A stretch of 64,000 nucleotides of DNA, taken from the IMG/VR virus record IMGVR_UViG_3300020204_000006. One strand, given 5' to 3'. Of this stretch, positions 1 through 44,355 are shown one piece after another. A program made the position numbers and the translations under genes. The stretch comes from a virus. The notes under the pieces are model-generated. The model worked only from the letters and a program-made list of their open reading frames with translations, was not told the DNA's origin and made no database searches. Each line of letters starts with the position of its first letter. The first letter of the stretch is position 1.

Positions 1-2
1 TT

Positions 3-2548: not shown

Positions 2549-3176
2549 AATTATAAAAAACATCATATTTGATTTAGACGGAGTTTTAGTAGATGCTTGT
2601 GACTGGCACTATGAATCTTTAAACAGGGCTTTGACTAAAAATGGATTTGAAGAAATAAATATTTCCGATCATAAGAAGACTTTCAATGGCCTACCTACTA
2701 AAGTTAAATTAAAAATGCTTAATTTAAATGAAGAGCAAATTGAGATGGTATCAAAAGACAAACAGTATATAACTCTAAATGTTATACACGAAATGTGCTT
2801 GAGAGATAAGTCAAAAATAGATTTTATGTTTTATTTAAAAAATCATGGAGTCAAAATAGGTTGTGTTACAAATAGCATAAAAAAAACTACAATAGCAATG
2901 CTATCTAATTGTGGAATAATAGACTTCATAGACAAAATTATTACAAATGAAGATGTTGTTGTGCCTAAACCAGATCCAGAGGGCTATATTAAATGTATGA
3001 AAAGTTTTTCTGCATCTCCACAAGATACCGTGATTGTGGAAGATAGTGAAAAAGGTGTTATGGCTGCATCAAAAACAAATTCATATATTTGGGTTGTAAA
3101 AAATGCAAAAAGTGTTACGATTGAAGATTTTAACATGTTTTGTTCTTTTAATTCTTTAGGTATATTTGAAAAATGA
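2541..3176 (+). CDS. HAD-superfamily phosphatase (beta-PGM/CbbY-like)
   Basis: Motif I IIFDLDGVLVD, motif II VTNS, PKPDPEGY, motif IV IVEDSEKG. Confidence 0.9.
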   Translation: MNKIIKNIIFDLDGVLVDACDWHYESLNRALTKNGFEEINISDHKKTFNGLPTKVKLKMLNLNEEQIEMVSKDKQYITLNVIHEMCLRDKSKIDFMFYLKNHGVKIGCVTNSIKKTTIAMLSNCGIIDFIDKIITNEDVVVPKPDPEGYIKCMKSFSASPQDTVIVEDSEKGVMAASKTNSYIWVVKNAKSVTIEDFNMFCSFNSLGIFEK

Positions 3177-3892
3177 TAAACATAGTTATTCCTGCTGCTG
3201 GAAGAGGAAGTAGATTTTCTTCATTAACAAGCACACCCAAGCCATTTATAGACATAAAGGGCAGAATTATGATTGATCATGCCATATCCAGTCTTGTTTC
3301 TAATTATGTTGATACATTTCAAGTCCATGTGTGTTTTCATAAAGATCATATTAAATATGAAAATTTTCTTAGTGAATTAAAAAATAGATATGATTTACAC
3401 TTAACGTACATAGATTATGTGACGTCTGGTCAGGCAGAGACTGTAAATATACTAGTAAAAAAAATAAGTAATAATTATCCAATATTAATTGCTAATTGTG
3501 ATCAGATAATAGAATGGGATATTAATGATTTTATTTCTTATTGTTTTTTAAATAATCTAGATGGGTGCATTCCTGTTTTTAGTTCAGACTCAGATAAATG
3601 GTCTTATGCGCAAACTGATGATAACGGATTTGTTTTAAAAACTGTCGAAAAAAAAGTTATATCTAATAATGCAACTGTTGGTATTTATTATTGGAAAAAT
3701 AAAGAAATATGCATTAAGTCAATAGAAGACATGAAGAGTAGTAATGACATGACTAATAATGAGTATTATGTTTGTCCAGCTTATAATTATTTAATAAAAA
3801 ATGGTGGAAAAGTTATGATATGGAATGACATAATAATGCATGGAGTTGGGACTCCGAATGACCTCAAAAGTTATATTGAATTACAAGGATAG
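3173..3892 (+). CDS. Sugar/polyol-phosphate nucleotidyltransferase (NTP_transferase family)
   Basis: IVIPAAGRGSRF...PKPFI, SGQAETV, LIANCDQ, EKKVISNNATVGIYYW, NNEYYVCPAYN, GVGTPNDL. Confidence 0.85.
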   Translation: MINIVIPAAGRGSRFSSLTSTPKPFIDIKGRIMIDHAISSLVSNYVDTFQVHVCFHKDHIKYENFLSELKNRYDLHLTYIDYVTSGQAETVNILVKKISNNYPILIANCDQIIEWDINDFISYCFLNNLDGCIPVFSSDSDKWSYAQTDDNGFVLKTVEKKVISNNATVGIYYWKNKEICIKSIEDMKSSNDMTNNEYYVCPAYNYLIKNGGKVMIWNDIIMHGVGTPNDLKSYIELQG

Positions 3893-3898
3893 CAATTA

Positions 3899-4672
3899 AT
3901 GTTTTTTGTTACAACATTTAGTGAAAGAGGATACAGGGAGTATGGAGAAAATATGCTTAATTCGTATGTTAAAAACTGCGACATTCCTATTTATGTATAT
4001 TATGAAAATTTTAAACCAAACATAGTTAGTCAAAATATTAGATATGTAGACATATTTGAAGTCAATCCCGATCTTATTTCTTTTATAAAAAGGAACAAAG
4101 AAAGACCTGTTTCAAATTTTAAATTTGACGGAGTTAGATTTAGTTATAAAGTTTTTGCGATAACAAATGCTGGCGTGAATCATTCATCTGAATGGATGTT
4201 TTGGATAGACGCTGATACTGTATTTAAAGAAAAAGTTAATCCCAAACAGATGATAAAAAAAATGCAAGATTGTGCATCTCTAAAAGATTCTAAATGTATT
4301 GATAATTATGATTTGGCATGTTTTTCAAGAAGAAAGACACCAAAAAGGCCTCCAGAAAAGTGCTGGACAGAATGCGGATTAGTGGGATACAATCTGAGAA
4401 ATCATAACACTTTAAACTTTCTTAAATTATTTAGAAATTTTTATATTAAGGATAAAATATATCAAGAAAAACAGCAGCATGATTCATGGATATTTGATGT
4501 TGTAAGAAAAAATTTGTCGCTTACAAATAAATTAATTGTTTTGAATTTAAACCCACAAAATTATTCTCACCCAATAGTACAGAGTCCAATGGGTTCTTTA
4601 TTTGACCATCTTAAGGGCAAGTTAAGAAAAAGAAGAGGCTCTAGTCCTGAAAAAAGAAAAAATATTACCTAA
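3899..4672 (+). CDS. GT-A fold glycosyltransferase-like protein
   Basis: FVTTFS...Y, RFSYKVFAI, WMFWIDADT (DxD), WTECG, HDSWIFD, DHLKG. Confidence 0.6.
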   Translation: MFFVTTFSERGYREYGENMLNSYVKNCDIPIYVYYENFKPNIVSQNIRYVDIFEVNPDLISFIKRNKERPVSNFKFDGVRFSYKVFAITNAGVNHSSEWMFWIDADTVFKEKVNPKQMIKKMQDCASLKDSKCIDNYDLACFSRRKTPKRPPEKCWTECGLVGYNLRNHNTLNFLKLFRNFYIKDKIYQEKQQHDSWIFDVVRKNLSLTNKLIVLNLNPQNYSHPIVQSPMGSLFDHLKGKLRKRRGSSPEKRKNIT

Positions 4673-4992
4673 TGAGACATTTTAATATAAAAAATTTTGA
4701 TAGAGGATGGATAATAGGCAATTTTGATAATTCGGTGTTAAAAACAGAAGATTTTGAACTTGGTATTAAAAATTACAAATCTGGAGAATTTAATCCCAAT
4801 CATTTACATAAACTCTCAAAAGAAATAAATTTTATTGTAAGCGGTGTTGTAAAATTTAATAAAGAATATTTTAGTGCCGGTGATGTGGTAGTTGTCGAAG
4901 AAAATGAATGTAGCTTTTTTGAATGTATTGAAGATTGTTGTATTGTAGTAGCAAGAAATAAATCTATAAGCACAGATAAGTATGAATGCTAA
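4672..4992 (+). CDS. Cupin-domain protein
   Basis: GWIIGNF, NPNHLHKLSKEINFIVSG (HxH...E cupin motif), FSAGDVVVVE. Confidence 0.75.
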   Translation: MRHFNIKNFDRGWIIGNFDNSVLKTEDFELGIKNYKSGEFNPNHLHKLSKEINFIVSGVVKFNKEYFSAGDVVVVEENECSFFECIEDCCIVVARNKSISTDKYEC

Positions 4993-5467
4993 TTTTGACA
5001 TAATAAGCCATAGAGGATATATAGAAGGTTGCAATCAAGAATTTGAAAACAATCCAGATCATTTGGAACATTGTTTTGAAAGATATCCTTGGATGTTTTT
5101 TGAAATAGATGTATGGAAAATAGGAAATAATTTTTATCTTGGTCATGATGAGCCTATCTATAAGGTCTATCTTGATTTTTTATATAATAAAAAGTTTTAT
5201 ATTCATGCCAAAAATCTGAATGCCTTTGAGTTTTTATATCAAAATAAAAATGCCAATCTTTTTAGGGACATGTTTTATCATGATAAAGATGATGTTACTG
5301 TGACTTTATCTGGTAAAATATGGTGCAACAAGAAAATATGGGTTAAAAATTCAATACTTAATCAGGTTTCAGAGGAAACAATAAATTTATATGATTTAAA
5401 TTATATTGGTATTTGTACTGACTTTCCATTAAAAGTTAAAAAATATATGGACCATCAATATGGGTGA
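4982..5467 (+). CDS. Small PLC-like/GDPD-like phosphodiesterase-fold protein
   Basis: IISHRG, EN, FEIDVW, LGHDEP, IHAKN, GICTD. Confidence 0.65.
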   Translation: MNANFDIISHRGYIEGCNQEFENNPDHLEHCFERYPWMFFEIDVWKIGNNFYLGHDEPIYKVYLDFLYNKKFYIHAKNLNAFEFLYQNKNANLFRDMFYHDKDDVTVTLSGKIWCNKKIWVKNSILNQVSEETINLYDLNYIGICTDFPLKVKKYMDHQYG

Positions 5468-6548
5468 TAGGGGAGTTATTATTTTTACAAATCATGTTGC
5501 TCCATGGCATATTGGAGGCAGTGAAATTGTTGTAGATAAAATAGCTGAAAATTTAGCCAATTATGTTCCGGTTGTTGTATGTGGTAGTGATGTCCCTGGT
5601 TACAAAAAATATAAAAATTATTTTCAGCACCGCGTTACAGACACTAATGATTTGAATTCTGTCTTGTCAAAATACAAAAACTATGAAATATTTATTTACA
5701 GTGATGGATATTTTTTTACAAAATTTATTTTAGATTATTGCAAGTTAAGAAATAAAAAAGTCCATTTGGCTCCAGTCGGATTCAATATAACTAGGGAAAA
5801 GGAAGAACTTAAAAAGAGAATTTTATCATACAGCAATATAAAATATATATATCATGATGTTAATTATGTGGATTTTATATGGGGTAATGAAAATTTATCT
5901 ACCATGCCAAAATATTCTTATTCAATAATACCAAATGGATTTGATGATTTTGAATTTAGTGGTACAGAAAAAAGACAATTTGACAAAAAGTCAATTATTA
6001 CTATTGCTAATACTTTCCCATTTAAGGGTCATGATTTGTGCATTGATGTTCTTGATGGTCTAATACAGGAATTTGACTTTGAATATCATATTTTTTGCAC
6101 AACACCATCTTGGATTGTTGCTAAAAATAAAATGAAATGGCTTATTTCGGAGTGCAACAAAAGATCAAAGTGGATGAGCGTTCACGTTGATTCTAAAAGA
6201 GAAAAAATGATTAGCTACTTAAAGGGTTCATCACTTATGCTTTTTCTTTCTCAAAAAGAAGTAAGCCCACTTGTTTTAATAGAATCTTGTGCTGCTGGTG
6301 TTCCATGGATAGCTTTTAATGTTGGGAACTCAAGGTCAATACCATCTGGTGTTATTTTTGATGCAGAAGAAGATTTTAAGGGCAATAAGATAATGACCGA
6401 AAATTTGAAATTAAAAATCTCAAACTGCATAAAGAATGAAATATTTGATGGTAATTTAATTGTCGATAAAGCTATTTCAAATAATTTTTTATCCGAAAGA
6501 TCGTGGTCATCTATATCTAAAATGTATTATGATTTTATACTAAAATAA
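5460..6548 (+). CDS. GT4-family glycosyltransferase
   Basis: PWHIGGSEIVV, IIPNG, KGHD, KEVSPLVLIESCAAGVPWIAFNVG. Confidence 0.85.
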   Translation: MGDRGVIIFTNHVAPWHIGGSEIVVDKIAENLANYVPVVVCGSDVPGYKKYKNYFQHRVTDTNDLNSVLSKYKNYEIFIYSDGYFFTKFILDYCKLRNKKVHLAPVGFNITREKEELKKRILSYSNIKYIYHDVNYVDFIWGNENLSTMPKYSYSIIPNGFDDFEFSGTEKRQFDKKSIITIANTFPFKGHDLCIDVLDGLIQEFDFEYHIFCTTPSWIVAKNKMKWLISECNKRSKWMSVHVDSKREKMISYLKGSSLMLFLSQKEVSPLVLIESCAAGVPWIAFNVGNSRSIPSGVIFDAEEDFKGNKIMTENLKLKISNCIKNEIFDGNLIVDKAISNNFLSERSWSSISKMYYDFILK

Positions 6549-6549
6549 T

Positions 6550-7374
6550 ATGAAAGTTTCAGTTTGCATAGCAGTTAAAAATTGTAGTAATTTTATAAAA
6601 GATTCACTATTTAGTATTTTGAATCAAGATTTTAAAGAAGATTGGGAAATATTACTTGGAGATGATCTGTCTAGCGATGGCACTATAGATGTTGTTATAG
6701 GTGCACTTAAATATATTGGTGGGAAAATTCCTGTTAGGTTATATAAATCTGATAAAAATATTGGATGTGGTCTTAGAAGGAATTGTCTTGTTAATTTTTC
6801 TTTTGGTGATTATGTTGCTATAGCTGACGGAGATGACATATATCCTCCCAAAAGAATAAGTGAGCAGTACTCAATAGCTTCTTCTGATAGTGGAATATTT
6901 GCATTATCGGGATCCTGTAATGTTATTGATGAATTTGGAAAAAGTATTTCACATATACACAAAGACAACATGACAGATCGTGAAATATTATATGCTCTTT
7001 CAAATACCTATGAAAACCCAATATGTGATCCATGTTCATTTTTTGACAAAAAAATATTTTTTGAAATGGGAGGGTATTCTTGTTTAGATCAAAATAAGCT
7101 TATACCTGATCTTGATTTGTGGATGAGATTTTTTGAATTTTCAAGATACGGCATTATAAGCAACAAGACAATTTTGGTTTTTGAAAATACTTGGGTTGAT
7201 TACAGAAAAAACCCAAATGGTAATACCGTAAAATTTAGTCGAGAAATGATGCGTGCACATGGTTTAAGACGAAAGATATTTAACCACAGGCTTTTAAACG
7301 AAGCAAGTGTTGAATTTAAAAAAGATTTTTCAACCCCTGGAAGGATGGAACTGATATATGAGCAAGGTTACTAG
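6550..7374 (+). CDS. GT2-family glycosyltransferase
   Basis: KVSVCIAVKN, EILLGDDLSSDGT, NIGCGLRRN, IADGDD, DLDLW. Confidence 0.85.
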   Translation: MKVSVCIAVKNCSNFIKDSLFSILNQDFKEDWEILLGDDLSSDGTIDVVIGALKYIGGKIPVRLYKSDKNIGCGLRRNCLVNFSFGDYVAIADGDDIYPPKRISEQYSIASSDSGIFALSGSCNVIDEFGKSISHIHKDNMTDREILYALSNTYENPICDPCSFFDKKIFFEMGGYSCLDQNKLIPDLDLWMRFFEFSRYGIISNKTILVFENTWVDYRKNPNGNTVKFSREMMRAHGLRRKIFNHRLLNEASVEFKKDFSTPGRMELIYEQGY

Positions 7375-8563
7375 TTCTCAAAATTGGTCGGACGAAGATT
7401 TAGAGTATTTGTATAAGGCTAGAAGTGAAAGCATTCCATATGACGTTATAGGCAGAGAGTTAAACAGGACAGCCGAAGCCTGTAAAAGCAAGTGGTTAAA
7501 AACAGAGTGGGATAAAATGTCATTTTTTAGATCTAGCGACACCAGGGTTAAAAAATCAAAAATTGTAGCCTTTGAAGAAAAAATGAATAAGACGGTTGAG
7601 AATAAGCTAGAGATGTTTAGACTTCGTGCCGATGTGCTGGGAGATAGAATAGAGAGTGCAATCAAAAAGGCTCCTAAAATAAAATTAACTCAATGGTCTC
7701 CTAAAAATAAAAAATATAAAATTGATTCTGAGGACATAGGTTTGGTTATGAGTGACCTACATATAGGCCACTCTCACAGTTTAGAAGAAACGGGCGGATT
7801 AAGTGAATACAATCTTGACATATTTATAAATAGGTTGAGAAATTTGGAGAATAGTGTTGCTGATATATATGAGCTCCACACTAGTCTTTATAAAATACCG
7901 AAGCTTCATATATTTTGCCTTGGCGACATAGTTGACGGAATGAACAACGCAGGAAGTTGGAGTCCTGTATATATAAACACGCCAATTTATGATCAGATAA
8001 TGATAGGTTTTGAAAATCTTTGTCATTCAATATGCTATTGGCTTACTATATTTGAAGAAATTCATTTTTATGGGGTTAGGGGAAATCATGGTAGGATAGC
8101 TCCATCTGGAGCTGAAAAGGACTACGCCAACTGGGATAACCTTTGCTATGACATGTTGAAACTTAAATTTGCTGACAACCCTCGTATAAAATTTAATGTA
8201 CCTAAAACATGGTGGATAATGGGTGAAATAAAAACACATAAGTTCCTTCTTGTCCACGGAGATGATGTTAGAAATTCTGGTCACGCTATTAAGGGTCTTG
8301 AAAATTTTGTCCAATCAATGAGCGGAATTATAAATGATAAACCAGATTACACTATATGTGGACATTTTCACCAATCTTCTGAATTAAGCACTAATTTTGG
8401 AAAAATGATTATTAATGGAAGTTTTGTTGGGGGTGACGTTTATTCCATAAAAAACCTGCATAAATGCTCTAAAGCAGAGCAAAAAATATTCGGCATAAAT
8501 GAATCCAGAGGTATAACGTGGAGGTATGATATAGATTTAGATCGTAAAAGATCTAAGAGATAA
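7358..8563 (+). CDS. Calcineurin-like metallophosphoesterase with N-terminal Myb/HTH-like domain
   Basis: All five motifs present: SDLHIG, LGDIVDG, GNHG, HGD, GHFH. N-terminus WSDEDLEYL...IGRELNRTAEACKSKW is Myb-like. Confidence 0.8.
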   Translation: MSKVTSSQNWSDEDLEYLYKARSESIPYDVIGRELNRTAEACKSKWLKTEWDKMSFFRSSDTRVKKSKIVAFEEKMNKTVENKLEMFRLRADVLGDRIESAIKKAPKIKLTQWSPKNKKYKIDSEDIGLVMSDLHIGHSHSLEETGGLSEYNLDIFINRLRNLENSVADIYELHTSLYKIPKLHIFCLGDIVDGMNNAGSWSPVYINTPIYDQIMIGFENLCHSICYWLTIFEEIHFYGVRGNHGRIAPSGAEKDYANWDNLCYDMLKLKFADNPRIKFNVPKTWWIMGEIKTHKFLLVHGDDVRNSGHAIKGLENFVQSMSGIINDKPDYTICGHFHQSSELSTNFGKMIINGSFVGGDVYSIKNLHKCSKAEQKIFGINESRGITWRYDIDLDRKRSKR

Positions 8564-26707: not shown

Positions 26708-28591
26708 ATGTTAAATAAAGAGCAACAAGATGCTGTTTCCCATATAGATGGACCATGCTTGGTAACTGCGTGTCCAGGAAGTGGCAAAACTAGAGTTATA
26801 GTTCACAGAGCTTGTCATATGATAAAATCTGGAATAGATCCATCTTCTATATTGATGCTTACATTTACCAATAAGGCTGCTAAGGAAATGAAGAACAGAT
26901 TGAGTGAAATGCTAGGTTCTGAGCAGTCTGAAAAAATTAGTTGCTCAACTTTTCATTCTTTGTGTGTTAAAATACTTAGAAAATATTATTCTTTATGCGG
27001 TGTGCACAAAAACTTTAATATATCGGATGAAGACGATTGCATGGTTATAGCTCAGTCTTTAGTTGATTCAAAGAAAATCAACCTTGATTCAGAAGAAATA
27101 AAATCTTTTATAAGAAAAGTTAATTCAAGCAGGGAAAATAATGATATTTCTATGGAGCGTATTTATGAATGGTTTCCAGGTGATGATATATTGTCTTCCT
27201 TAATACTTGAATATATAGATTCAATTAAAAAGTCTGGGAATATAGATTTTACAGGTATACTTCATGAAGTTTATATGCTATTAAAAAGTAACGAAGAGTG
27301 TAAAAATTTTATAAATAGCAGATTTAAATATGTCATGGTAGATGAGGTGCAAGACACAAATCTTTTACAATTTGAGCTTTTAAAGCTTATGGCATCTCAT
27401 AATAATCTTTTTATGGTTGGAGACCTAGATCAATCTATTTATAAATTTAGAGGTGCAAGACCTGAAAATATGATTAAATTTTGTGAAGAAAGAAGCGCAA
27501 AAATAATCAGATTAACTTCTAATTATAGATGTGGGCCGCATATAATAAAACTTGCTAACAGCATTATAGAAAAAAATTCAAATAGAATGAATGAAAAAAT
27601 TATTGGAGCAAAAAATAATGGCCACGAAGTTGTAAAATATATAGCTCTTACTAGAGAGGAAGAATCTGAGGCTGTTGCAAAAAGTATTAAAAATTTGTAT
27701 CATTCCGGGACTAGGTTAAATGAAATAGCAATTTTATTTAGGACTAGTTATATATCTAGGTCTTTTGAACTCAGCTGTTCTAAATTTGGAATTCCATATG
27801 ATCTTGTTGGTGCTTTTAAATTCTTTGAAAGAGAAGAAATTAGAGATACTATAAGCATGTTAAAATTTCTTAATAATCCAAATGACACTATGAGTTTATT
27901 TAGATTTGTAAATAAGCCTAAAAAGGGCATAGGTCCTAAGATGTTTGGAAAATTTTTAGAAAATTTTAAAAGTAATAACCAGGATAGAAGTGGAGATTTT
28001 TCAGGCATATATGCTCTTGTAGACTCTTTTTCTTCGTATGATAATAGAACTGTAGTTTCCGAATGCATAGATTTTGTTATAAAGGCAACTTCTTACGAAG
28101 AATATCTTAAAAAGTCTCATAAGGATACATATGAAGATAGAATGGACAACATAAGAGAGCTCAAAAACTCATGTATTAATTTTGATAATAAACCAAATGC
28201 CAATTTAAATAATTGGTTACTTAATCTAATGCTTATGGATTCTCAAGATTCTGATGATAGCAATGGATTTAAGGTTAAGCTTATGAGTATGCATGCTGCA
28301 AAGGGGCTAGAGTTTGATTGTGTATTTGCAGTTGGTCTTGAAGACGGCGTTTGTCCTCATAAGAGATCTATACAGGAAGATCCGTCCAATATTGAAGAGG
28401 AGCGCAGACTTCTTTATGTCGCTACTACAAGAGCAAAAGAAAGATTATTTTTGTCTATGAGTGCTGTTACGGATTTAAGAACAAATAATATAAGCATGCC
28501 AAGTAGATTTTTGGTAGAATCTGGATATATAAATTTAGAAAAATACTATGAGCACGTTAGCGGACTTGTCAAAAAAAATCAATCCTATTGA
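26708..28591 (+). CDS. pcrA: PcrA/UvrD superfamily 1 helicase
   Basis: LNKEQ, ACPGSGKT, TFTNKAA, TFHS, VDEVQD, VGDLDQSIY.FRGA, NYR, SMHAAKGLEFD, EERRLLYVATTRAK. Confidence 0.93.
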   Translation: MLNKEQQDAVSHIDGPCLVTACPGSGKTRVIVHRACHMIKSGIDPSSILMLTFTNKAAKEMKNRLSEMLGSEQSEKISCSTFHSLCVKILRKYYSLCGVHKNFNISDEDDCMVIAQSLVDSKKINLDSEEIKSFIRKVNSSRENNDISMERIYEWFPGDDILSSLILEYIDSIKKSGNIDFTGILHEVYMLLKSNEECKNFINSRFKYVMVDEVQDTNLLQFELLKLMASHNNLFMVGDLDQSIYKFRGARPENMIKFCEERSAKIIRLTSNYRCGPHIIKLANSIIEKNSNRMNEKIIGAKNNGHEVVKYIALTREEESEAVAKSIKNLYHSGTRLNEIAILFRTSYISRSFELSCSKFGIPYDLVGAFKFFEREEIRDTISMLKFLNNPNDTMSLFRFVNKPKKGIGPKMFGKFLENFKSNNQDRSGDFSGIYALVDSFSSYDNRTVVSECIDFVIKATSYEEYLKKSHKDTYEDRMDNIRELKNSCINFDNKPNANLNNWLLNLMLMDSQDSDDSNGFKVKLMSMHAAKGLEFDCVFAVGLEDGVCPHKRSIQEDPSNIEEERRLLYVATTRAKERLFLSMSAVTDLRTNNISMPSRFLVESGYINLEKYYEHVSGLVKKNQSY

Positions 28592-29192
28592 CATAGAAGA
28601 AGTTTTTATAATAGGTTCTGGTGTTTCGTTATGTGAATGCGATATTGCCAAATTTAAAAATAGAACATGTATTTTTATTAATAGCTCAGTAATACTAAAA
28701 GAAATATTAAAGCCCAGTATTTCTTTTTTTGTTTCTACCGATAGCCTTATTTTAAGATGGGATTACTCTTCAATTTTAGACAAATGTGATTATTTGATGC
28801 TTAGAAAGAATGAAAATTTTTATAAAAAATTTAAAGATAATGCTTATTATTTTGAGTGTGGAGACGACTATGAATCTTTATACAATCTATTTGAATCTGA
28901 TAAAATAATAGGATGTTCTTCTATAATTTCAGCAACTCATATTTTTTTGCAATTAGGGTCGAAATATATTAATATAATAGGCTTCGATCTTTCGTTAGAA
29001 GAAAATGGCTTTTTATATTTTTGGCAAAAGTGCTACAATAATATTAGGCCTTATTTCTTAGGCAATACAAATCTGATTTCAACTGATTCTGGTAATTTAG
29101 AAAAAAATTGGGACATACAGAGAAACTTTATGTCAAACATCTTGTTAAATAATAAATTTAGAATTAATATTAATGGAAAATTTAATAAATAA
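28548..29192 (+). CDS. GT42/Maf/DUF115-like putative nonulosonate transferase (paralog 1)
   Basis: [46 protein letters not shown]. Confidence 0.6.
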
Positions 29193-29919
29193 TTTAAATT
29201 ATTTTAATAATAATCATATAGATAAGATGGGTTTTTTAATAGGCAGTGGACCATCGCTAAAAGATGTTGACTTTAATCTTATATCCCCTTATGTGTCTAT
29301 GACTGTAAATTCAAGTATAATAGCTATGCCAGAGTGTGACTATTTTGTTAGTGACGATGATGACATATGCAATTGGACATACTTTAATTATGAGCTTCCA
29401 AGATCAAATTGCACTAAATTTCTTTTTAGGAAAAAATTTATTGGAAAATCCAATAATTTTAAAAAGCATCAAACGGTTTATTTTGATCACGACTGGTACT
29501 ACGCTCCCGAGCTTAAAAAGTTTAATTTGCCTGGTCTGAAAATGCACAAAAACCCTGTTAGACCGCTTATAGGAGCCAGGACAAGTTCTGCCACAGGTCT
29601 ACATATACTTTATCTTATGGGCTGCAATCCTATAGTTATGCTTGGCATGGATGGCAAATGTACTGATGATAAATGCTATTTTTGGGAATTTTCTGGTAAT
29701 GGTAGAAAAAAACCTGTTAGACTTGAGGGTAGACCAAAAAGCACTGCTTATCATAAGCATTCTTGTAGCGATATTATTTCTTACTGGAGGCTTTTTAAGC
29801 AAGTAAATTCTTCTTTAAATACTAAAATAATAGATTGCTCTTTTGGTAGTTTGGCTGGAATATTTGAACAGGAAAAACTAGAAAATGTTTTGTCTAAATA
29901 TGGGGTCAGAAAAAAATGA
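29173..29919 (+). CDS. GT42/Maf/DUF115-like putative nonulosonate transferase (paralog 2)
   Basis: [51 protein letters not shown]; resembles CstII motifs GNGPSL, TSG...LGY..IYLSGID, HSKNTDI. Confidence 0.68.
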
Positions 29920-30647
29920 TATATGAAAAATGTTTTTTTATTCCAGCAAGATCTGGATCAAAAGGTTTAGTTAATAAAAATATTTCTATGTTGAACAACA
30001 AAATGCTTTTTGAATGGTCTTTTTTGGCGGCTAATTCTATCCTGGGAGAAAAAGACTGCATTATTATATCAACAAACTGTAATGTTATAAAGAATTGGTT
30101 TTATAGTAATTGTAATAAATTTAAAAATGTATATTTGAGAGATAGGCCGATTGATCTCTGTGGCGACAGAAGTTCAACAGAAAGTGCCTTAGTAGATTCT
30201 TTGGAGTACATGAAACTAAGCAATAATGATATAGAAAATTTTATACTTTTGCAGCCTACTAGTCCATTTAGACTTGATGATATTATTAGTAAATGTTTAA
30301 ATTATTTTTATGATAATGGTAAAAAAAGATCTGTTTTTACCGGATCCAAACATACTCCTTTTTTATGGAAGAATTGCGACGGGTTTTTTTCTCCAATTTA
30401 TAAAATAGGTGACAGAAAAATGAGACAAGATATTAGAAATGAAGATTTTTATTATCATGAAGACGGTAATGTATATGTATTTTCTGCCGATAATTTATTA
30501 TATAAAAATAATAGACTTACAGATGAATGTTTAGTGGTTGAAAATTCTTTTATAAATTCAATTCAAATAGATAGTATTGACGATTTTAATATGTGTGTTA
30601 ATATAGCAAAAGAAGAAAGAGTTTTATCTTGGATGAATGCCCTGTAA
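29916..30647 (+). CDS. neuA: CMP-nonulosonate synthetase (NeuA family cytidylyltransferase)
   Basis: [46 protein letters not shown]. Confidence 0.9.
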
Positions 30648-31471
30648 AATTAGTAGCTGAAATAGGTTGTGTTCACGGCGGTTCTGAAGAAAGAGCAATT
30701 ATGCTATGCGAACTTGCTTGCTCTTGTGGCGCTGATGTCATAAAGTCTCAAAAAAGGAATCCAGAAGAAAGTATTTCTCCGTTAATGAAAAATAGTCCTC
30801 ATCCTAATTCTTTTTATTCATATGGTTCAACTTATTTAGAACACAGAAAAAACTTAGAATTAGACATATCTTCTCACATAAAAATGAAAAATATTTGCCA
30901 AAATATGGGCAAGGAGTATGCTTGCAGTGTATGGGACGTAACTAGCGCAAAAGAAATTATATCAATACATCCAGATTATATAAAAATTCCAAGTGCTTGT
31001 AATTTAAATTTCGAACTTATAGATTTTGTCTTATCTAATTTTAATAGAAGTGTGCATATAAGTCTCGGTATGCTTTCTTTTATGGACAGAGAAATTCTTT
31101 TTGACAGATACTTTTGCGAAAAAAAGATTGTATATTACCACTGCACTTCCGAGTATCCTTGTAAATTTGATAATTTATATTTAAATGAAATTAAATACTT
31201 GAAAGAAAGATTTAGATCACATGTTGGTTTTTCAAACCATGGATATGGTATAGCATCAGATATGGTAGCTATGGCTTTTGGTGCTAGTTTTATAGAGCGA
31301 CATTTTGTTGACGACAGGACATTTAGGCATACTGATGCTGCTGCTAGTATTGAGCCAAATGGTTTAAGACAGCTAAAAAGAGACATTGTTAACGTGTATT
31401 CTGGCTTTAAATATAGGCCATATTTGATATCCGAAGAAGAGCATAATCAATCTATAAAAATGAGGTATTAA
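30629..31471 (+). CDS. neuB: NeuB-family nonulosonate(-9-phosphate) synthase lacking the C-terminal AFP-like domain
   Basis: VAEIG..HGG, GADVIKSQKR, SVWD, IKIPSA, ISLGM, HCTSEYP, GFSNH, IERHF, DAAASIEP; only 280 aa. Confidence 0.88.
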   Translation: MDECPVKLVAEIGCVHGGSEERAIMLCELACSCGADVIKSQKRNPEESISPLMKNSPHPNSFYSYGSTYLEHRKNLELDISSHIKMKNICQNMGKEYACSVWDVTSAKEIISIHPDYIKIPSACNLNFELIDFVLSNFNRSVHISLGMLSFMDREILFDRYFCEKKIVYYHCTSEYPCKFDNLYLNEIKYLKERFRSHVGFSNHGYGIASDMVAMAFGASFIERHFVDDRTFRHTDAAASIEPNGLRQLKRDIVNVYSGFKYRPYLISEEEHNQSIKMRY

Positions 31472-31950
31472 TGTTTAGCTATATATTTTGTGATGTAGAT
31501 GGAGTTCTTACTGATGGTGGATATTTAATTGATCATCAAGGTAATATATCTAAATCTTTTCATACTAGAGACATGCATATGCTTTCTTTGTTGTCCCAAA
31601 AGGGCTATAAAGTTTTTTGTATAACCGGTTCTAATGATGAATGTACATTAAAAAAAATGGAAATAATGAACATACAATTAATTCAAAACTGTTCCGACAA
31701 AAAAACATACATACAAAATATGTTTATTGAAAAATTTTCTTGCAGTTGGGATGAAATTCTTTTTATAGGTGACGGTATTAATGACATAGAATGTTTAAAA
31801 AATTCTAGATATAAAGCCTGTCCTTCAGATTCAAGTCCATTTGTTTTAGATATAGATGGTATTTTTATTAGTAAAATTGAAGGTGGTAGTGGTTGCGTAG
31901 AAGATATAGTTTATAATTTATTTTTAAAAAATGGCAATAGAATTACATGA
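31471..31950 (+). CDS. KdsC-family (C0) HAD phosphatase, probable KDN/Neu5Ac-9-phosphate phosphatase
   Basis: DVDGVLTDG, F..RD, ITG, K, FIGDGINDI, CPSDS, GGSGCV. Confidence 0.85.
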   Translation: MFSYIFCDVDGVLTDGGYLIDHQGNISKSFHTRDMHMLSLLSQKGYKVFCITGSNDECTLKKMEIMNIQLIQNCSDKKTYIQNMFIEKFSCSWDEILFIGDGINDIECLKNSRYKACPSDSSPFVLDIDGIFISKIEGGSGCVEDIVYNLFLKNGNRIT

Positions 31951-34031
31951 TTAACTTATATCATATAATAGATAAAACATTTAACAGTGGAGCTTATAGC
32001 CAGCTTAAGTACCTATACAATGCTCTTAAATATTTTTATTCCGATAGAGTAAATCAAAAAATATTGCTAATTGATATTACGCAAAAACATAAAATTGATA
32101 AGTCTTTTGATCTGCCTTACTCTGTGTATAATTTTAAAAAACTTCAATCTTTAGATAAAAACAATAGTCTTTTTTTGTACCACAAATTAATGTGTTCCCC
32201 TGTTGTTAAAATGGTTTCTTCTCTGAAGCCAATTAGAATTCCAATATTAGTTCTTAATCACACTTACAGTGTAAATGACAAATTTATGAATGTTGGTAAT
32301 CCTGATGCTTGTATATCCGTTAGCTCTCATATGTCTGAAAAAATTTCTTCGTGTTCTTCTGTCAAAAAAATATTTACTATAAAAAATTGGTGCGACATAC
32401 AGTATATCAATTCGTTACCCGTTGTTGGTGTTGATTTACCAAAAGAAGAATTGGTTTTTGGAAGAATAAATGGATTTAATGACATCAAATATAGTAAGGT
32501 TTTTATGAAATGGTTTTTAAAAGCAGATTTTGGCAAAAAAGCTATACTGCAGTATGTGGGATCTGGTCATAAATTAAAAGATGCTAAAGATTTGGTTGAC
32601 AAGCTAAAAAATGAATCAATAAATACCATTGAATTTTTAGGTCAAGTAAATGACGATGCAAAAAAGTTTTCTTTAATAAAATCATGGGATGCTTTTTTAT
32701 ATCATATAAATATGCCTGAGGGCACTAGTATGAGTGTTGTTGAAAGTTTAGTTTGCGGTACTCCAGTAATATGTAATTTACCAGGTAATACAGAATTAAT
32801 TAAAAATAATATAAATGGAATTGTTTACAAAGATTTTTCTGCAATAGAATCTTTTGTAAAAGATCATGGAAAAATTGGTTTAAAATCTTTAAAAGAGAAG
32901 TGCGCATTAGACTCAAATTCTTATTCTGCAAAGCATTGGGTTTCTAATTATATAAATGCATTTGAAGAATGTATTTCTGTTAGCAAGTATTTTAATTGTA
33001 ATTCTGACATACCCAATAGAAATAAGTCTTCAAATGTATTTGTATCAAAAGATAAAAATTCTGTAAAAAATTCAAATAATCAGATTAGTTTAAATAGAGA
33101 TAAAAAAATCAAATCAATTAAGGTTCATAGTCCAATTAGAACAAATAAATTTAATTTTCCACTTAAAAAAACTGTAGAAAATAAAAATTTATTTGCCATG
33201 GACAAACCAAGAGTTGTAACAAGACTTAAAAATAATAGTATAAAAAATCCACAAAACAAATATGCAAATTTGGTAAATCAGGGGAAATTTTCTATATTAA
33301 CAGCCAGCTACAATAATGAAAAATATCTTGATTTTTATTTTAACACTATTATTAAGCAGTCATATCGTCCTTTAGAAGTAATTTTTATTGATGACCAAAG
33401 TAAAGACAATACTTCTGGTAAAGTTTTGGAATGGGAAAAAAAGCTTCAAGATAATGGAATAGATCTGGTGTACAACAAGCCTAAACAAAAACTTTACTGT
33501 GGAGATTCTTATAATTTGGCATTAAGTCTAGCTAGTGGAGATTTTTGCGGAGTTATTGACTCTGATGATGGCATCATAGACAATGCTGTATCTATGATGG
33601 TTGAGAGATACATTTTAAAACCCAATTGTCTTTACATTTGGTCTAATTTTTATGTTTGCGATGAAAGTATGAAAATAATAAAAAATGGCTTTAGTTCTCA
33701 CCCTGCATTTAATAGAAGCTTGCTGTTAAGCGAGTATTATACAAGAAAAAGACATTGTTTTTCCCACTGGAGAACATTTAGAAAAAATTCAGATATACCG
33801 GATAATCTTTTTGGTAAAAATTTAAAAAGTAGTGTTGATAAGTATATGGGGTATAGACTTGAGGAGTGTGGGATAGGACACTTTTTTGATTCTATGCTTT
33901 ATCTGTACAGATCTGGAGTTAAGCATGGTATAACCGCTAATCAGCCACAAAGAAGTCAGTGGGGAGAAATAAGGAAAGATGCACAAAAAAGAAGAAGAAT
34001 TAATAGGTTTTTTTCTCATGGCTTTTCTTAA
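31947..34031 (+). CDS. Bifunctional GT4 + GT2 glycosyltransferase fusion
   Basis: N-half: SGAYSQ, FGRI, EGTSMSVVESLVCGTPVI. Asn/Lys-rich linker. C-half: SILTASYN, IFIDDQSKD, IDSDD. Confidence 0.85.
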   Translation: MINLYHIIDKTFNSGAYSQLKYLYNALKYFYSDRVNQKILLIDITQKHKIDKSFDLPYSVYNFKKLQSLDKNNSLFLYHKLMCSPVVKMVSSLKPIRIPILVLNHTYSVNDKFMNVGNPDACISVSSHMSEKISSCSSVKKIFTIKNWCDIQYINSLPVVGVDLPKEELVFGRINGFNDIKYSKVFMKWFLKADFGKKAILQYVGSGHKLKDAKDLVDKLKNESINTIEFLGQVNDDAKKFSLIKSWDAFLYHINMPEGTSMSVVESLVCGTPVICNLPGNTELIKNNINGIVYKDFSAIESFVKDHGKIGLKSLKEKCALDSNSYSAKHWVSNYINAFEECISVSKYFNCNSDIPNRNKSSNVFVSKDKNSVKNSNNQISLNRDKKIKSIKVHSPIRTNKFNFPLKKTVENKNLFAMDKPRVVTRLKNNSIKNPQNKYANLVNQGKFSILTASYNNEKYLDFYFNTIIKQSYRPLEVIFIDDQSKDNTSGKVLEWEKKLQDNGIDLVYNKPKQKLYCGDSYNLALSLASGDFCGVIDSDDGIIDNAVSMMVERYILKPNCLYIWSNFYVCDESMKIIKNGFSSHPAFNRSLLLSEYYTRKRHCFSHWRTFRKNSDIPDNLFGKNLKSSVDKYMGYRLEECGIGHFFDSMLYLYRSGVKHGITANQPQRSQWGEIRKDAQKRRRINRFFSHGFS

Positions 34032-34080: not shown

Positions 34081-34374
34081 ATGGGAAGAAAAAGTAAAAT
34101 AAAAAAAGTTAGATTTAAAAAATCAATAATAGACGTTACTGAAGTTTTAAAATATGTGAGTTATACTCAGCTTACTGGTAGCATAACAAAATTTTATATA
34201 GATAAAAAAGATGACGTTGTTGTAAAAAACATAATACAGGATGCTTTTGTTGATTTTATAAGAGTAGAATTTAAAAATAATGTAAGATATACAATTAGAC
34301 CTCATAAGAAAGACGATAAAAACGTGATACCTGATACGCTTTCTGATTTTTTTAACCTTTTTAAAACGGAGTAA
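34081..34374 (+). CDS. Hypothetical protein
   Basis: 97-aa ORF, basic N-terminus. Confidence 0.5.
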   Translation: MGRKSKIKKVRFKKSIIDVTEVLKYVSYTQLTGSITKFYIDKKDDVVVKNIIQDAFVDFIRVEFKNNVRYTIRPHKKDDKNVIPDTLSDFFNLFKTE

Positions 34375-34376
34375 AC

Positions 34377-34667
34377 ATGTACTGGAAATTAGATACCTTT
34401 GTAAGTAATGCTGGAGTTAAAGTTGAAGTTTTAAAGTCTGCAGATGAATCATTTAACTTGCCAACAAAATTTGTTGGAGTCGCTCACATGATGAGCGAAT
34501 ATGGTATAAGTGATGTTAGATTTGAAATACCTGCAATTTCAGTAGAAGAGGCTTTTGAAAAATATGATGAATATCTCAAGATATTTAGTGACAATATGAA
34601 AAAGCAGATGGAAGAAAGACAATCAAAAATAGAAATTCCAAAGCCAGAGTTGGTAGTACCACAATAA
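34377..34667 (+). CDS. Hypothetical protein
   Basis: 96-aa ORF preceded by GGAG. Confidence 0.55.
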   Translation: MYWKLDTFVSNAGVKVEVLKSADESFNLPTKFVGVAHMMSEYGISDVRFEIPAISVEEAFEKYDEYLKIFSDNMKKQMEERQSKIEIPKPELVVPQ

Positions 34668-34677
34668 GAATTATTTG

Positions 34678-35337
34678 ATGAAAATAGGCGTTGTAACAGA
34701 TTGTTTTGAAAATTTGCCAAGCATTGATGAAAGCTTTGATGTTTTCATAGTGCTTGGTAATTTTTTACCTATTTATGATACAAGACTGGTTACATGGAAC
34801 ATAGTAAATCAAGTTGATTATATTGATAATTTATTTAATCCATGGCTTAATAAAATAAAATCTGACTATAAAATAATACTTGGTGGCAAAAATGACCACT
34901 TGGCTCAATTCTATGGATCTCAAACCAGTTTTTATCTTGCTGGAGATTATTTGCAAGATGAAATTATGACAATAAAAGGTATTAATTTTTATGGTATGCC
35001 ATGGATGCCTTCTCATTACTACGACAGAGAACTATCTATCGCGTTTAGAAGCAGAGAAGGCAATTTTTTTAACTTAGCCGTAGAGTCAATTCACGAAAAC
35101 GTTGATATATTATTGACAAATGTTCCGCCAAAATTAAATTTTACATCAGACAATCACAAATTTGACGGTGACATTTTTCTTTCTAAAAAAATAGACAGTT
35201 TAAAAAAAATAAAATTTCATTTATTTTCTATGTGTACCGATGTTGATGAGAATATTGAAAAAACGATAAAGCATGCATCGTTGTGCTGTTCTAAATCAGC
35301 ACTTTCTTCTCGCAATTTTTTAAGTTTTGAGGTTTAG
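34678..35337 (+). CDS. Degenerate calcineurin-like phosphoesterase (probable pseudoenzyme)
   Basis: Fold pattern MKIGVVTD, VLGNF, GGKND, YLQDE...I.GINFYGMPW.P, VDILLTNVPP, but the metal-binding His/Asp residues are replaced. Confidence 0.6.
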   Translation: MKIGVVTDCFENLPSIDESFDVFIVLGNFLPIYDTRLVTWNIVNQVDYIDNLFNPWLNKIKSDYKIILGGKNDHLAQFYGSQTSFYLAGDYLQDEIMTIKGINFYGMPWMPSHYYDRELSIAFRSREGNFFNLAVESIHENVDILLTNVPPKLNFTSDNHKFDGDIFLSKKIDSLKKIKFHLFSMCTDVDENIEKTIKHASLCCSKSALSSRNFLSFEV

Positions 35338-35341
35338 CAAT

Positions 35342-35671
35342 ATGAGACCAGATGAGTTAGCAAGATTTATTTGTGGTGATTTTGAAAAGATTTCATCAAA
35401 AGATGAAAAAGACGGCTTTGCAGGTATAGTAATAGCAAAGAATTTTTTAGATGGTAAAAACATAGACGAGCATTATTTTTCAAAGTCCACGAAGATACCG
35501 CTTGAATATTTTGGAAGGGCCTTGGAGAGACTTGACAGGTCCGGTTTATTTCTTCACTATTCTTGGTTCTGCAATAATGCTGGTTCTTTAAAGAAAGATC
35601 CAGCAAAAAATTATGATTGCATGATTGATTGGTGCTACGTTGCTGCTAAGGCAAGTGGATTTACAATATAA
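35342..35671 (+). CDS. Hypothetical protein
   Basis: 109-aa ORF from ATG 35342. Confidence 0.5.
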   Translation: MRPDELARFICGDFEKISSKDEKDGFAGIVIAKNFLDGKNIDEHYFSKSTKIPLEYFGRALERLDRSGLFLHYSWFCNNAGSLKKDPAKNYDCMIDWCYVAAKASGFTI

Positions 35672-35672
35672 T

Positions 35673-36173
35673 ATGAGCAAGAAATCAATTAATTCTGTTA
35701 TTCCATTTTTGGAAAATATCGTTGATCACAGTCTTAATCAAGATAGAATCAAAAAAATGTTGACAGAGGAGACTGGAGTCGGATCAAAAGATTTGCCGCC
35801 AGAGGCAGAAATTTTTGTATCTGCATGGATTGATTCTATGATGCATGGGATATATGACAATAAAGAAAAATTCAAAAATGATTTTATTGTTGACTATGTA
35901 CTATGTGTCATGAAATATTTTGAATCAATTCAGTCAAAATCTTCTTTAGAAAATTTTGATGAGCATTTTGAATCTTTGATGTCAAACCCTCTTTTTAGAG
36001 AAATTATGAAGGATAAGAGTTTTGTTGAATCTTTAATGAAAGTGAAGGAAGAGCATGTTTCAAAAATTTTGGAGCTACTTAAGTCAGAAGAAAATATGGA
36101 ACATTTCAAGAAAAACATCTCAAAAATCATGCCAGGATTTAGATTTGTCGATAAAGACATGTTCGGCTTATAA
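35673..36173 (+). CDS. Hypothetical helical protein
   Basis: ATG 35673 two bases after upstream stop. Confidence 0.55.
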   Translation: MSKKSINSVIPFLENIVDHSLNQDRIKKMLTEETGVGSKDLPPEAEIFVSAWIDSMMHGIYDNKEKFKNDFIVDYVLCVMKYFESIQSKSSLENFDEHFESLMSNPLFREIMKDKSFVESLMKVKEEHVSKILELLKSEENMEHFKKNISKIMPGFRFVDKDMFGL

Positions 36174-43033: not shown

Positions 43034-43334
43034 AAAAAAACAACCAATTGATGACTACGGTTTCAAAAATGATCAAATTGTAGATTGTCTAGAAAAAATT
43101 ATAGATCATGTTTGGTCAAATCTTCATGAAAATCAATCTAAAAAAATTGATACAAAAGAACTACTAGAGCTTACTGTTATACTTAGCACTTCTTGGTCTC
43201 TTGTTGAATCCATGATTAACTTTCATGAAGACCTATATGGCGATAGTTTAGTTTCCGATTCATCATTGGATGATGAATCGGAAGAAGATTCTGATGACGA
43301 GGACGAAGATAATTTAGATGAAGAAGAAAAGTAA
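43026..43334 (+). CDS. Hypothetical protein with acidic tail
   Basis: ATG 43026, 8-nt overlap; ends DDESEEDSDDEDEDNLDEEEK. Confidence 0.55.
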   Translation: MSEKKQPIDDYGFKNDQIVDCLEKIIDHVWSNLHENQSKKIDTKELLELTVILSTSWSLVESMINFHEDLYGDSLVSDSSLDDESEEDSDDEDEDNLDEEEK

Positions 43335-43353
43335 TTTTATTGAAAGGATAAAA

Positions 43354-44355
43354 ATGAAAAAAACTATTACTTCTAATAATATTGAAATTTTGAATTCTAA
43401 TGTTAAGAAAAAGGTTTTGGTTACTGGTGCTACTGGCTTTATTGGCTCAAACTTAGTTATGGATCTATGCTCCAATCCAAACAATACTGTCATTGGCGTT
43501 GATTTTTCAGAAGAAAATAATAAAATGTTTAAGAGCGACTTTTTAGATTCAAATAAAAATTTTACACTTATTGAGGGTGATTATTCTTCTGAAGAGTTTT
43601 TAGATATAGTAAAGAATGAAAGTGGAGTTGATTGTATAGTTCATCTTGCGGCCATACCTCGTGTCGCATATTCAGTGGAAAATCCTGCTGAAACTTGCTA
43701 CGAAAACGAGTTTAAAACCGTTAAGCTTTTAGAAGCTGCTTCTTCCAGAAAAATGAGATTTATTTTTGCTGGTAGCAGCAGCGTTTATGGAAACATAAAA
43801 AGCTTCCCTACAAAAGAAAAAGATGAAAAAAATCCTCAGAGTCCATATGCTATACAAAAACTTGTTGGTGAAATGTATATGAAAAATTTTAATTCTATTC
43901 ATGGCCTTGATTGTGTTTCTTTGAGATTTTTTAATGTATTTGGTCCAAGACAACTAGGCAATAGCCCTTATTCTTGTGTTATATCTGCTTGGTGCCATGC
44001 CATAAAAGACGGTAGGTCTTTAAGGATAGATGGCGATGGAACTCAAGAAAGAGACTTTTGCTATGTTGACAATGTTGTTGATTCCATAAAAAGATGCATG
44101 TACAGTGAAGAAAGATTTGATTTTAAGGTGTACAATGTGGCATGTGGTAGCTTTAATTCCCTAAATTCAATAAAATGTGTTTTTGAACAAAAATTTGGAG
44201 ATAGAATAAAATTTGTTGAAGCTCCCACTAGACTTGGTGATGTGAAAAAGACTCATGCTGACATATCCTTAATATCAAAAGATCTTAATTATTCTCCAAA
44301 GTTTGATCTTTGGGGCGGTCTAGAAAGAACTATAGAGTGGTGGAAAATATTGTAA
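43354..44355 (+). CDS. NAD-dependent nucleotide-sugar epimerase/dehydratase (extended SDR)
   Basis: VLVTGATGFIGS, HLAA, GSSSVYG, PQSPYAIQK (YxxxK), LRFFNVFGP, GDGTQERDF.YV; ATG 43354 follows AAGGA (alternative ATG 43318). Confidence 0.92.
   Translation: MKKTITSNNIEILNSNVKKKVLVTGATGFIGSNLVMDLCSNPNNTVIGVDFSEENNKMFKSDFLDSNKNFTLIEGDYSSEEFLDIVKNESGVDCIVHLAAIPRVAYSVENPAETCYENEFKTVKLLEAASSRKMRFIFAGSSSVYGNIKSFPTKEKDEKNPQSPYAIQKLVGEMYMKNFNSIHGLDCVSLRFFNVFGPRQLGNSPYSCVISAWCHAIKDGRSLRIDGDGTQERDFCYVDNVVDSIKRCMYSEERFDFKVYNVACGSFNSLNSIKCVFEQKFGDRIKFVEAPTRLGDVKKTHADISLISKDLNYSPKFDLWGGLERTIEWWKIL

Follow-up and report, generated by a model that had tools for sequence, protein, structure and literature searches.

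Sugars of the sialic acid type are generally regarded as markers on the surfaces of animals and of bacteria that interact with animals. The described routes closest to the one considered here lead to 2-keto-3-deoxynononic acid (KDN) in Bacteroides thetaiotaomicron and Prymnesium parvum, and use a synthase, a phosphatase and a cytidine monophosphate (CMP)-KDN synthetase (PMC6200933). The present analysis concerns a 64,000-nucleotide stretch of viral DNA from the IMG/VR record IMGVR_UViG_3300020204_000006 (hereafter the window), in which six overlapping open reading frames (ORFs) on the + strand, at positions 28548–34031, form a cassette. Genomic context, gene fusions in related lineages and intact motifs give good support for reading it as a clade-wide phage operon to make, activate and transfer a nonulosonate by way of a 9-phosphate. 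It is probable that this operon of huge phages, passed on vertically, produces a CMP-activated nine-carbon ulosonic acid through a phosphorylated route and then transfers it. The enzymes are of known kinds in an unexpected carrier, and a full-text literature search found no publication describing such a phage cassette.

In the proposed pathway, a NeuB-type synthase lacking the SAF domain would convert phosphoenolpyruvate (PEP) and a host hexose 6-phosphate, most likely mannose 6-phosphate (Man-6-P), to KDN 9-phosphate (KDN-9-P), from which the adjacent KdsC-family haloacid dehalogenase (HAD) phosphatase would strip the 9-phosphate. The NeuA-like enzyme would then give CMP-KDN, one or both of two minimal DUF115/Maf-like proteins (P1 and P2) would transfer the sugar to an acceptor in the cytoplasm, and a soluble fusion of glycosyltransferase families 4 and 2 (GT4-GT2) would build or extend the underlying glycan. 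We infer these steps, and with them the substrates, product and target of the pathway, from family membership and context; genes, families, motifs, folds, synteny and co-divergence were observed directly. ORF positions, exactly as first read, and family scans confirm the arrangement of six overlapping genes (Table 1), with overlaps between consecutive genes of 20, 4, 19, 1 and 4 nt, and the gene for P1 also overlaps the 3′ end of an upstream UvrD/PcrA-like helicase gene by 44 nt. None of the six proteins has a transmembrane-like segment (the maximum hydropathy over 19 residues, KD19, of the GT4-GT2 fusion is 1.31), and there are no flippase, polymerase, lipid-carrier transferase, export or membrane-protein genes within the cassette. 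The window itself is phage-like, with 30% G+C and genes almost all on one strand; it encodes DnaB, a split DNA polymerase, UvsX, a clamp loader and a deoxynucleoside monophosphate (dNMP) kinase, and has giant ORFs at its 3′ end. The cassette sits in the replication and nucleotide block, with the UvrD-like helicase on one side and the dNMP kinase and clamp loader on the other.

Scanning IMG/VR with an alignment of NeuB homologues yielded 20 loci on contigs of 100–498 kb, and two of the genomes, G003 (498 kb) and G004 (488 kb), have direct terminal repeats and are rated complete. By tblastn and ORF mapping, the order UvrD, one to three Maf-like genes, NeuA, NeuB, HAD was found to recur in most of the 20 loci, often with GT4/GT2 genes downstream of the phosphatase. 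Across 15 phages the pairwise identities of NeuB follow those of UvrD (r 0.89; Mantel 0 of 2000), and this parallel divergence indicates that the cassette has been inherited vertically. Relative to the window copy, identities are 47–58% for NeuB and 34–40% for UvrD; that the cassette is better conserved than the neighbouring helicase suggests a function important to the virus itself. The cassette is thus old in the clade, passed down vertically under strong constraint and not picked up sporadically, and the full predicted set for making, activating and transferring the sugar belongs to the conserved gene stock of a clade of 200–500 kb phages. A DNA similarity search of GenBank phages gave no match and a protein-level search of the same phages only three distant NeuB matches, so that no cultured relative is at hand. 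Single-sequence scans of IMG/VR and of GTDB genomes returned nothing, and an alignment-based scan of GTDB found one distant bacterial locus only.

The synthase matches PF03102 strongly (E 4e-53, 180.7 bits against a gathering cut-off of 22.1) and ends after the barrel with no SAF match, which bears out the earlier note's description of a 280-aa NeuB without the antifreeze-like (AFP-like, SAF) domain. Residues E11, K39, Q41, K119, S122, S145, Y176, H204, E223, H225 and D236 are conserved, and all PEP, metal and catalytic positions of the Neisseria enzyme are present. Two more specific models fall short of their cut-offs, TIGR03569 (N-acetylneuraminate synthase equivalog) with 158.8 bits against 399.65 and TIGR03586 (PseI) with 100.3 against 340.25. 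An exhaustive HMMER search gave 8990 relatives, and a tree of 153 domains was built from the 150 best representatives, the phage loci, the Escherichia coli K1 NeuB (UTI89) and a Phascolarctobacterium NeuB as outgroup. The phage NeuBs come together in a single clade of this tree (SH-aLRT 99). The clade sits within a group of 111 rows that lack SAF (support 82, with 98 and 97 at inner nodes), and all 28 SAF-bearing sequences, the K1 enzyme included, fall outside that group. The loss of SAF is accompanied by the loss of an acidic residue at the position of residue 124 of the window NeuB, which is Asp or Glu in 32 of 36 SAF-bearing NeuBs and Cys, Leu, Lys, Met or Ser in the SAF-less ones, all phage copies among them; its absence suggests that the sugar pocket has been remodelled.

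All three fusions to a KdsC-type HAD that were found (P0277, P0198 and P0161), which are independent of one another, belong to the SAF-less group, and so do three of four NeuA-NeuB fusions, the fourth (P0288) having SAF and lying outside. The group also holds P0153, a 427-aa metagenomic protein in which a phosphomannose isomerase (PMI) domain (PF01050, E 2e-29) is joined to a NeuB 42% identical to that of the window. Chromosomes across Mucilaginibacter carry the gene of the P0277 family (478 aa), and when it served as query only that genus was returned; it is likely an uncharacterised bifunctional synthase-phosphatase for KDN or a related sugar. Its database annotations are inconsistent, reading either 'KDO 8-P phosphatase' or 'NeuB family'. 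The SAF-less group, with its HAD and PMI fusions, yields a rule, open to test, by which NeuB homologues acting on phosphorylated sugars could be predicted.

The phosphatase has a capless C0 core in which the DxDG, T/S, K and GDxxND motifs are intact in all 17 phage copies, and it adjoins NeuB in nearly all related loci. Its matches in the Protein Data Bank (PDB) are all of the KdsC family, namely 3n07 (KdsC, E 1e-17) and the chains 4hgr and 3e81 (E around 1e-15), and the KdsC and KDN-9-P phosphatase models score it at 75–82 bits, each below its cut-off: 82.5 against 180 for NF058599 (the KDN-9-P phosphatase, BT1713 equivalog), 77.2 against 208 for NF007019 (KdsC) and 74.7 against 106.95 for the subfamily model TIGR01670. 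The NeuA-like protein matches CTP_transf_3 (PF02348, E 9e-10, 39.2 bits against a gathering score of 22.6); its best solved relatives are the CMP-N-acetylneuraminate (CMP-Neu5Ac) synthetases 6ifd (E 2e-14) and 1eyr (E 1e-8), with no KdsB match among solved structures, and 15 phage homologues keep the motifs PARxGSKG..KN, LQPTSP.R, RxMRQ and NG. Family assignments and intact motifs thus support the earlier proposal of a phage-borne set of synthase, phosphatase and cytidylyltransferase. The last gene of the cassette combines Glycos_transf_1 (E 9e-12, residues 197–304) and Glycos_transf_2 (E 8e-18, residues 449–614). The two are also fused in L016 and L019, and they are separate genes after the phosphatase in L009, L011 and L014.

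A phosphatase fixed beside a SAF-less synthase, or fused to it, argues for a 9-phosphate route. Such a 9-phosphate arises only from a hexose 6-phosphate, which rules out the 6-deoxy precursors of pseudaminic (Pse) and legionaminic (Leg) acid. The absence of a NeuC epimerase from the window, noted at first reading, was confirmed among the ORFs scanned, where neither NeuC/Epimerase_2 nor NanE was found; NanE was likewise not found in four relatives, and the complete genome G004 has neither NanE nor NeuC/Epimerase_2, which suggests that the precursor is a general host metabolite. G002 carries a PMI-like cupin about 7.5 kb downstream of its cassette, and none was found in the window by a search with the PMI part of P0153. 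Taken together, a host-metabolite precursor, the PMI fusion and this cupin make Man-6-P, and hence KDN, the simplest reading. The conserved neighbourhood and the fusions uphold the phosphorylated route proposed in the earlier note, and the sequence evidence supports a predicted 9-phosphate route, which would most simply lead from Man-6-P to CMP-KDN. That the genes instead serve a classical, unphosphorylated pathway to Neu5Ac, legionaminic or pseudaminic acid, with the HAD doing an unrelated job, is highly improbable: the best NCBIfam models point that way, with scores far short of their cut-offs (the synthase matches NeuB_NnaB and PseI, the cytidylyltransferase PseF), but the cassette lacks NeuC and the PseB/C/H/G and LegB/C/H/G genes, G004 lacks Epimerase_2, the synthase has no SAF domain and lies outside the clade of the K1 NeuB, and the HAD is kept beside the synthase or, in related lineages, fused to it. 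How a classical set appears in such phages is illustrated by G003, in which a second, very divergent NeuB lies about 12 kb downstream of the cassette and is followed, about 5 kb further on, by a NeuC/WecB-type epimerase (PF02350, E 4e-56); G003 may therefore hold a second, classical nonulosonate pathway.

The two proteins at the head of the operon, P1 and P2 (TRANSFERASES), are paralogues with 27% identity (BLASTP E 2e-7). They had been described as members of GT42 or Maf-like, with a possible catalytic His of the CstII type in P2. No family match was obtained for P1, which nevertheless keeps all 12 invariant residues of the family. P2 gave PF01973 (MptE-like/DUF115) at E 1e-4 and 22.7 bits, under the gathering score of 34.6, and PHROG 4603 ('alpha-2,3-sialyltransferase') at E 4e-7. 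Among 29 family members, 27 match PF01973 (E ≤ 0.01, best 1.2e-10) and only one matches PF06002 (GT42, CST-I; E 0.009), neither P1 nor P2 doing so, and a profile search of PDB sequences reached the GT42 enzyme 9c08 at E 0.008 only. An AlphaFold2 (AF2) model of P2, built from an alignment of 29 phage homologues, has a mean predicted local distance difference test (pLDDT) score of 90.2, and the central domain of Maf (5mu5) tops its comparison with 48,161 chains (VIA), with Z 15.9, a root-mean-square deviation of 3.7 and 201 aligned residues, followed by the MptE pyrophosphokinase (Z 12.0 over 157 residues) and then SteA; GT29 and GT42 sialyltransferases reach Z 8.2–9.4 (Cst-I 9.3). Foldseek likewise places 5mu5 (E 2e-5) ahead of CstII and 9c08 (around 4e-4), and the VIA match covers only residues 257–519 of the 632-residue Maf chain. 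The model of P1 (pLDDT 79.7) does not separate the two folds, since MptE 6-hydroxymethylpterin pyrophosphokinase (HPPK) is top at Z 11.8 with Maf at 10.9 and GT29 at 10.0. Going by their predicted folds and sequence profiles, P1 and P2 are therefore best classed as DUF115/Maf-like, not as GT42: the sialyltransferase-type fold of the earlier note stands in its Maf-like form, and membership of GT42 does not.

Two subfamilies occur across the clade, type A, which resembles P2, and type B, which resembles P1 and has Gln for the family His; type-B copies are found in L002–L004 and L014–L019. The motif HKHSCSDI was located at P2 residues 194–201, but the His proposed as catalytic is not conserved. 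In most type-A members a His stands just before the conserved Cys, in the window P2 that place is taken by Ser with the His one residue earlier, and in the closest orthologues (L002–L004) the family position is Glu or Gln. Uncultured phages and some giant viruses commonly encode similar short DUF115 proteins, which are uncharacterised.

Several points weigh against the pathway as drawn. The phylogeny proposed for NeuB places the phage clade inside the SAF-less group and the K1 enzyme outside it, in a tree that was built without BT1714, the Prymnesium KDN-9-P synthase or animal NANS. The PMI fusion is represented by P0153 alone, a metagenomic protein from a contig of 5.8 kb. The motif KSQKR, which the earlier note had singled out, is indeed present at NeuB residues 39–43, but it was rejected as a phosphate-binding marker because K42 and R43 are the commonest residues in the nearest SAF-bearing NeuBs too, and so are not specific to SAF-less enzymes. 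Synthase, phosphatase and NeuA all score below the NCBIfam equivalog cut-offs, and since the phosphatase scores alike on the KDN-9-P phosphatase and KdsC models, its sequence alone does not call a substrate. In an alignment to 4hgr, apparently a mutant chain, it has Ser and Ile at positions 56 and 67, where BT1713 presumably carries its KDN specificity residues, E56 and K67.

This last difference, with its presumed reference residues, would suit a sugar other than KDN. The same 9-phosphate route could yield Neu5Ac or another 5-substituted nonulosonate from host N-acetylmannosamine 6-phosphate (ManNAc-6-P), supplied for example by a host NanE, and the relatedness of NeuA to CMP-Neu5Ac synthetases agrees with this, as does the acceptance of both ManNAc-6-P and Man-6-P by human NANS (PMC6200933); the sequence features tested do not separate KDN from Neu5Ac substrates. 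Such a product is nonetheless rather unlikely, as no virus-encoded source of ManNAc-6-P was seen (no NanE in four relatives and no Epimerase_2 beside the cassette), the synthase has a close relative with a fused mannose-6-phosphate isomerase domain, the PMI-like cupin of G002 lies near its cassette, and Man-6-P is universal, which ManNAc-6-P is not.

For the transfer step, the difficulties are that P1 has a C-terminus shorter than those of its relatives and a weaker model, that the DUF115 fold is common to the MptE pyrophosphokinase, and that no conserved catalytic base can be named in the P1/P2 family. P1 and P2 could thus be MptE-type (pyro)phosphokinases or non-catalytic partners, with transfer carried out by the GT4-GT2 protein or by a gene elsewhere; PF01973 is named for MptE, MptE HPPK is the first structural match of P1 and the second of P2, and the invariant residues GxGxS, N, D and GxD, with no conserved His base, are common to the whole superfamily. 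Against this, which we regard as distinctly unlikely, the Maf core is matched by P2 with a higher score and over more residues than MptE, one to three DUF115 copies always lie directly upstream of NeuA-NeuB-HAD, in the manner of Maf genes with Pse/Leg genes, and a pterin kinase would have no role in a nonulosonate context: no pterin genes were found near the cassette, and nonulosonate genes adjoin the DUF115 genes in every locus. To our knowledge, the GT4 and GT2 families do not use CMP-nonulosonates. Transfer by one or both of the Maf-like proteins is accordingly kept here as the preferred, predicted step.

As to the acceptor, the solubility of all the enzymes and the absence of lipid-carrier and export genes favour one in the cytoplasm, and the analogy with Maf enzymes, which O-glycosylate flagellin on Ser/Thr ahead of its export, favours protein Ser/Thr. 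By that analogy it would most likely be a protein serine or threonine, probably on a protein of the phage particle. A fuller proposal may be put forward tentatively, as possible rather than probable: huge phages would sialylate their own particle, with phage-made KDN placed on virion Ser/Thr by a minimal Maf-type pair before or during assembly. P1 and P2 could possibly act as a heteromer of one type A and one type B protein. If true, it would be the first case of a bacteriophage encoding its own system for protein O-sialylation and would give the particle an acidic glycan coat; a virion target would extend phage particle glycosylation to nonulosonates and offer a natural minimal Maf-type transferase for studying acceptor choice. 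The poly-Ser linkers of the giant proteins were considered as a conserved acceptor and rejected, as such tracts, though plentiful in the window and G001, are nearly absent in the cassette-bearing G002, G003 and G004.

It is more doubtful that the sugar goes to a glycoconjugate or protein of the host surface (lipopolysaccharide, capsule, teichoic acid, S-layer, flagellin or pili), masking receptors and blocking superinfection in the course of a long infection. Sugar clusters of jumbo cyanophages have been read in this way (PMC7824862), Maf acts naturally on a host protein, flagellin (bioRxiv 10.1101/2023.12.03.569772), and the operon lies among early or replication genes, not structural ones. 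The cassette, however, consists of six soluble proteins, none of them a flippase, polymerase, lipid-carrier transferase or membrane protein, and its conservation in phages whose hosts must differ fits a phage-borne acceptor better, although neither point is decisive. Still less can be said for phage DNA as the target, with the sugar serving as a base hypermodification against host nucleases. The location of the cassette in the replication and nucleotide block would suit this, phage glycosyltransferases have been reported to put an ulosonic acid (Kdo) on 5-hydroxymethylcytosine (5hmC) (bioRxiv 10.1101/2023.12.21.572611), and in many relatives an N6/N4 DNA methyltransferase gene (PF01555, E 3e-44) stands between UvrD and the Maf-like genes, a junction at which the window has none. 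It is made very unlikely by the fact that the known DNA glycosyltransferases are GT-B enzymes acting on 5hmC (same source), and that the DUF115/sialyltransferase fold has no known DNA-modifying member; moreover, no hydroxymethylation route was found in the relatives, a ThyA-family gene occurring only in G004, and Tet/JBP was not found in four relatives, a weak test since that family matched no control genome.

Other sugar-related genes of the window include a second block at positions 1–7374, with three GT4-like and two GT2 genes besides those listed in Table 1, and this block shows that the phage has a wider glycan-building capacity. About 9 kb downstream of the cassette, behind a sigma-factor-like gene, lies a gene of the short-chain dehydrogenase/reductase (SDR) type for a nucleotide-sugar 4-epimerase or dehydratase, for which the best NCBIfam models are TviC and GalE, both below cut-off. 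Directly after the cassette come five small ORFs without family matches, whose order is kept in the closest relatives L002–L004 only; they might be candidates for a part in glycosylation, such as factors that set acceptor specificity. Homing endonuclease genes adjoin neuB in several related huge phages, some of them HNH and PacI-like (E 9e-5 to 3ldy) and one of the LAGLIDADG type, and in the database protein P0146 an HNH domain seems to be fused to NeuB. This additional N-terminal domain and the ORF that lies between NeuA and NeuB in L008 were considered as pathway parts and set aside, both being HNH (PacI-like) homing endonucleases. Selfish elements seem to use the conserved cassette as a landing site.

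Table 1. Positions of the cassette genes and of other features in the window and in related loci (locus numbers are given where a position is not in the window).
Feature	Position	Strand	Size and remarks
P1, short DUF115/Maf-like paralogue, type B	28548–29192	+	214 aa
P2, DUF115/Maf-like putative CMP-nonulosonate transferase, type A	29173–29919	+	248 aa; PF01973, PHROG 4603, fold
NeuA-like CMP-nonulosonate synthetase	29916–30647	+	243 aa; CTP_transf_3
SAF-less NeuB-family synthase	30629–31471	+	280 aa, TTG start; PF03102; predicted sugar-6-P + PEP to nonulosonate-9-P
KdsC-family (C0) HAD phosphatase	31471–31950	+	159 aa; predicted nonulosonate-9-P phosphatase
GT4-GT2 fusion glycosyltransferase, soluble	31947–34031	+	694 aa; Glycos_transf_1 + Glycos_transf_2
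Five small ORFs after the cassette	34081–36173		97, 96, 220, 114 and 182 aa
SDR nucleotide-sugar 4-epimerase or dehydratase	43318–44355
Beta-phosphoglucomutase-family HAD	2541–3176		second sugar block
RmlA-like sugar-1-P nucleotidyltransferase	3173–3892		second sugar block
Metallophosphoesterase	7358–8563		listed with second sugar block
Second NeuB of G003	L026: 226367–226990
NeuC/WecB-type epimerase of G003	L032: 231638–232639
DNA methyltransferase	L005: 5028–6023; L009: 3960–4982		equivalents in L007, L011–L014
Homing endonuclease genes next to neuB	L008: 7417–7995; L015/L017: 10385–11197; L020: 6830–7816

Among characterised systems, the CMP-KDN cluster of B. thetaiotaomicron (BT1714, BT1713 and CMP-KDN synthetase) is matched by the phage set in its composition of a NeuB-family synthase, a C0 KdsC-family HAD and a CMP-sugar synthetase. 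In the Bacteroides and Prymnesium routes, as in the phage set, no epimerase is needed and Man-6-P is a central metabolite; the phage genes differ in being virus-encoded and joined to transferases of their own, and in that their substrates are predicted from sequence. The animal route to Neu5Ac 9-phosphate (NANS, NANP, CMAS) follows the same logic, from phosphorylated hexose to 9-phosphate, removal of the phosphate and formation of the CMP-sugar, but NANS has a SAF/antifreeze-like domain that the phage NeuB lacks, NANP belongs to a different HAD subfamily, and the resemblance is one of analogy. In the Mucilaginibacter HAD-NeuB proteins (e.g., WP_166090020.1), a SAF-less NeuB from the same large group as the phage enzyme is covalently joined to a YrbI/KdsC-family phosphatase, which supports the coupling of the two activities; these uncharacterised proteins are encoded on chromosomes of cellular organisms and share 35% identity with the phage NeuB.

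For the putative transferases, the Maf O-glycosyltransferases (Magnetospirillum 5mu5; Shewanella Maf-1 and Maf-2) resemble P2 in being cytoplasmic, soluble and linked to CMP-nonulosonate synthesis, and paralogous pairs are common in both. The phage proteins, at 214–266 aa, amount to the catalytic core, and neither the N-terminal and C-terminal (TPR) acceptor-binding domains that flank it in Maf nor a recognisable GlfM partner was identified for P1 and P2; the predicted donor would be of the KDN or Neu5Ac type, that of Maf being Pse or Leg. The GT42 enzymes (Campylobacter Cst-I and Cst-II, Pasteurella 9c08) share with P1 and P2 the sialyltransferase fold of the GT-A-variant type, a nucleotide loop G-x-G-P/E-S-L near the N-terminus and a G-x-D..Y/F-x-F region, but there is no significant PF06002 match, the structural score is about Z 9 only, and nothing conserved corresponds to the catalytic His of Cst-II. 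Among viruses, jumbo cyanophages (Iyer et al. 2021, PMC7824862) have sugar and polysaccharide clusters that likewise combine the phages' own genes for nucleotide-sugar synthesis with several glycosyltransferases; those clusters are sporadic and polymorphic, whereas the cassette described here is conserved and syntenic, diverges together with a backbone gene, and is predicted to make a nonulosonate.

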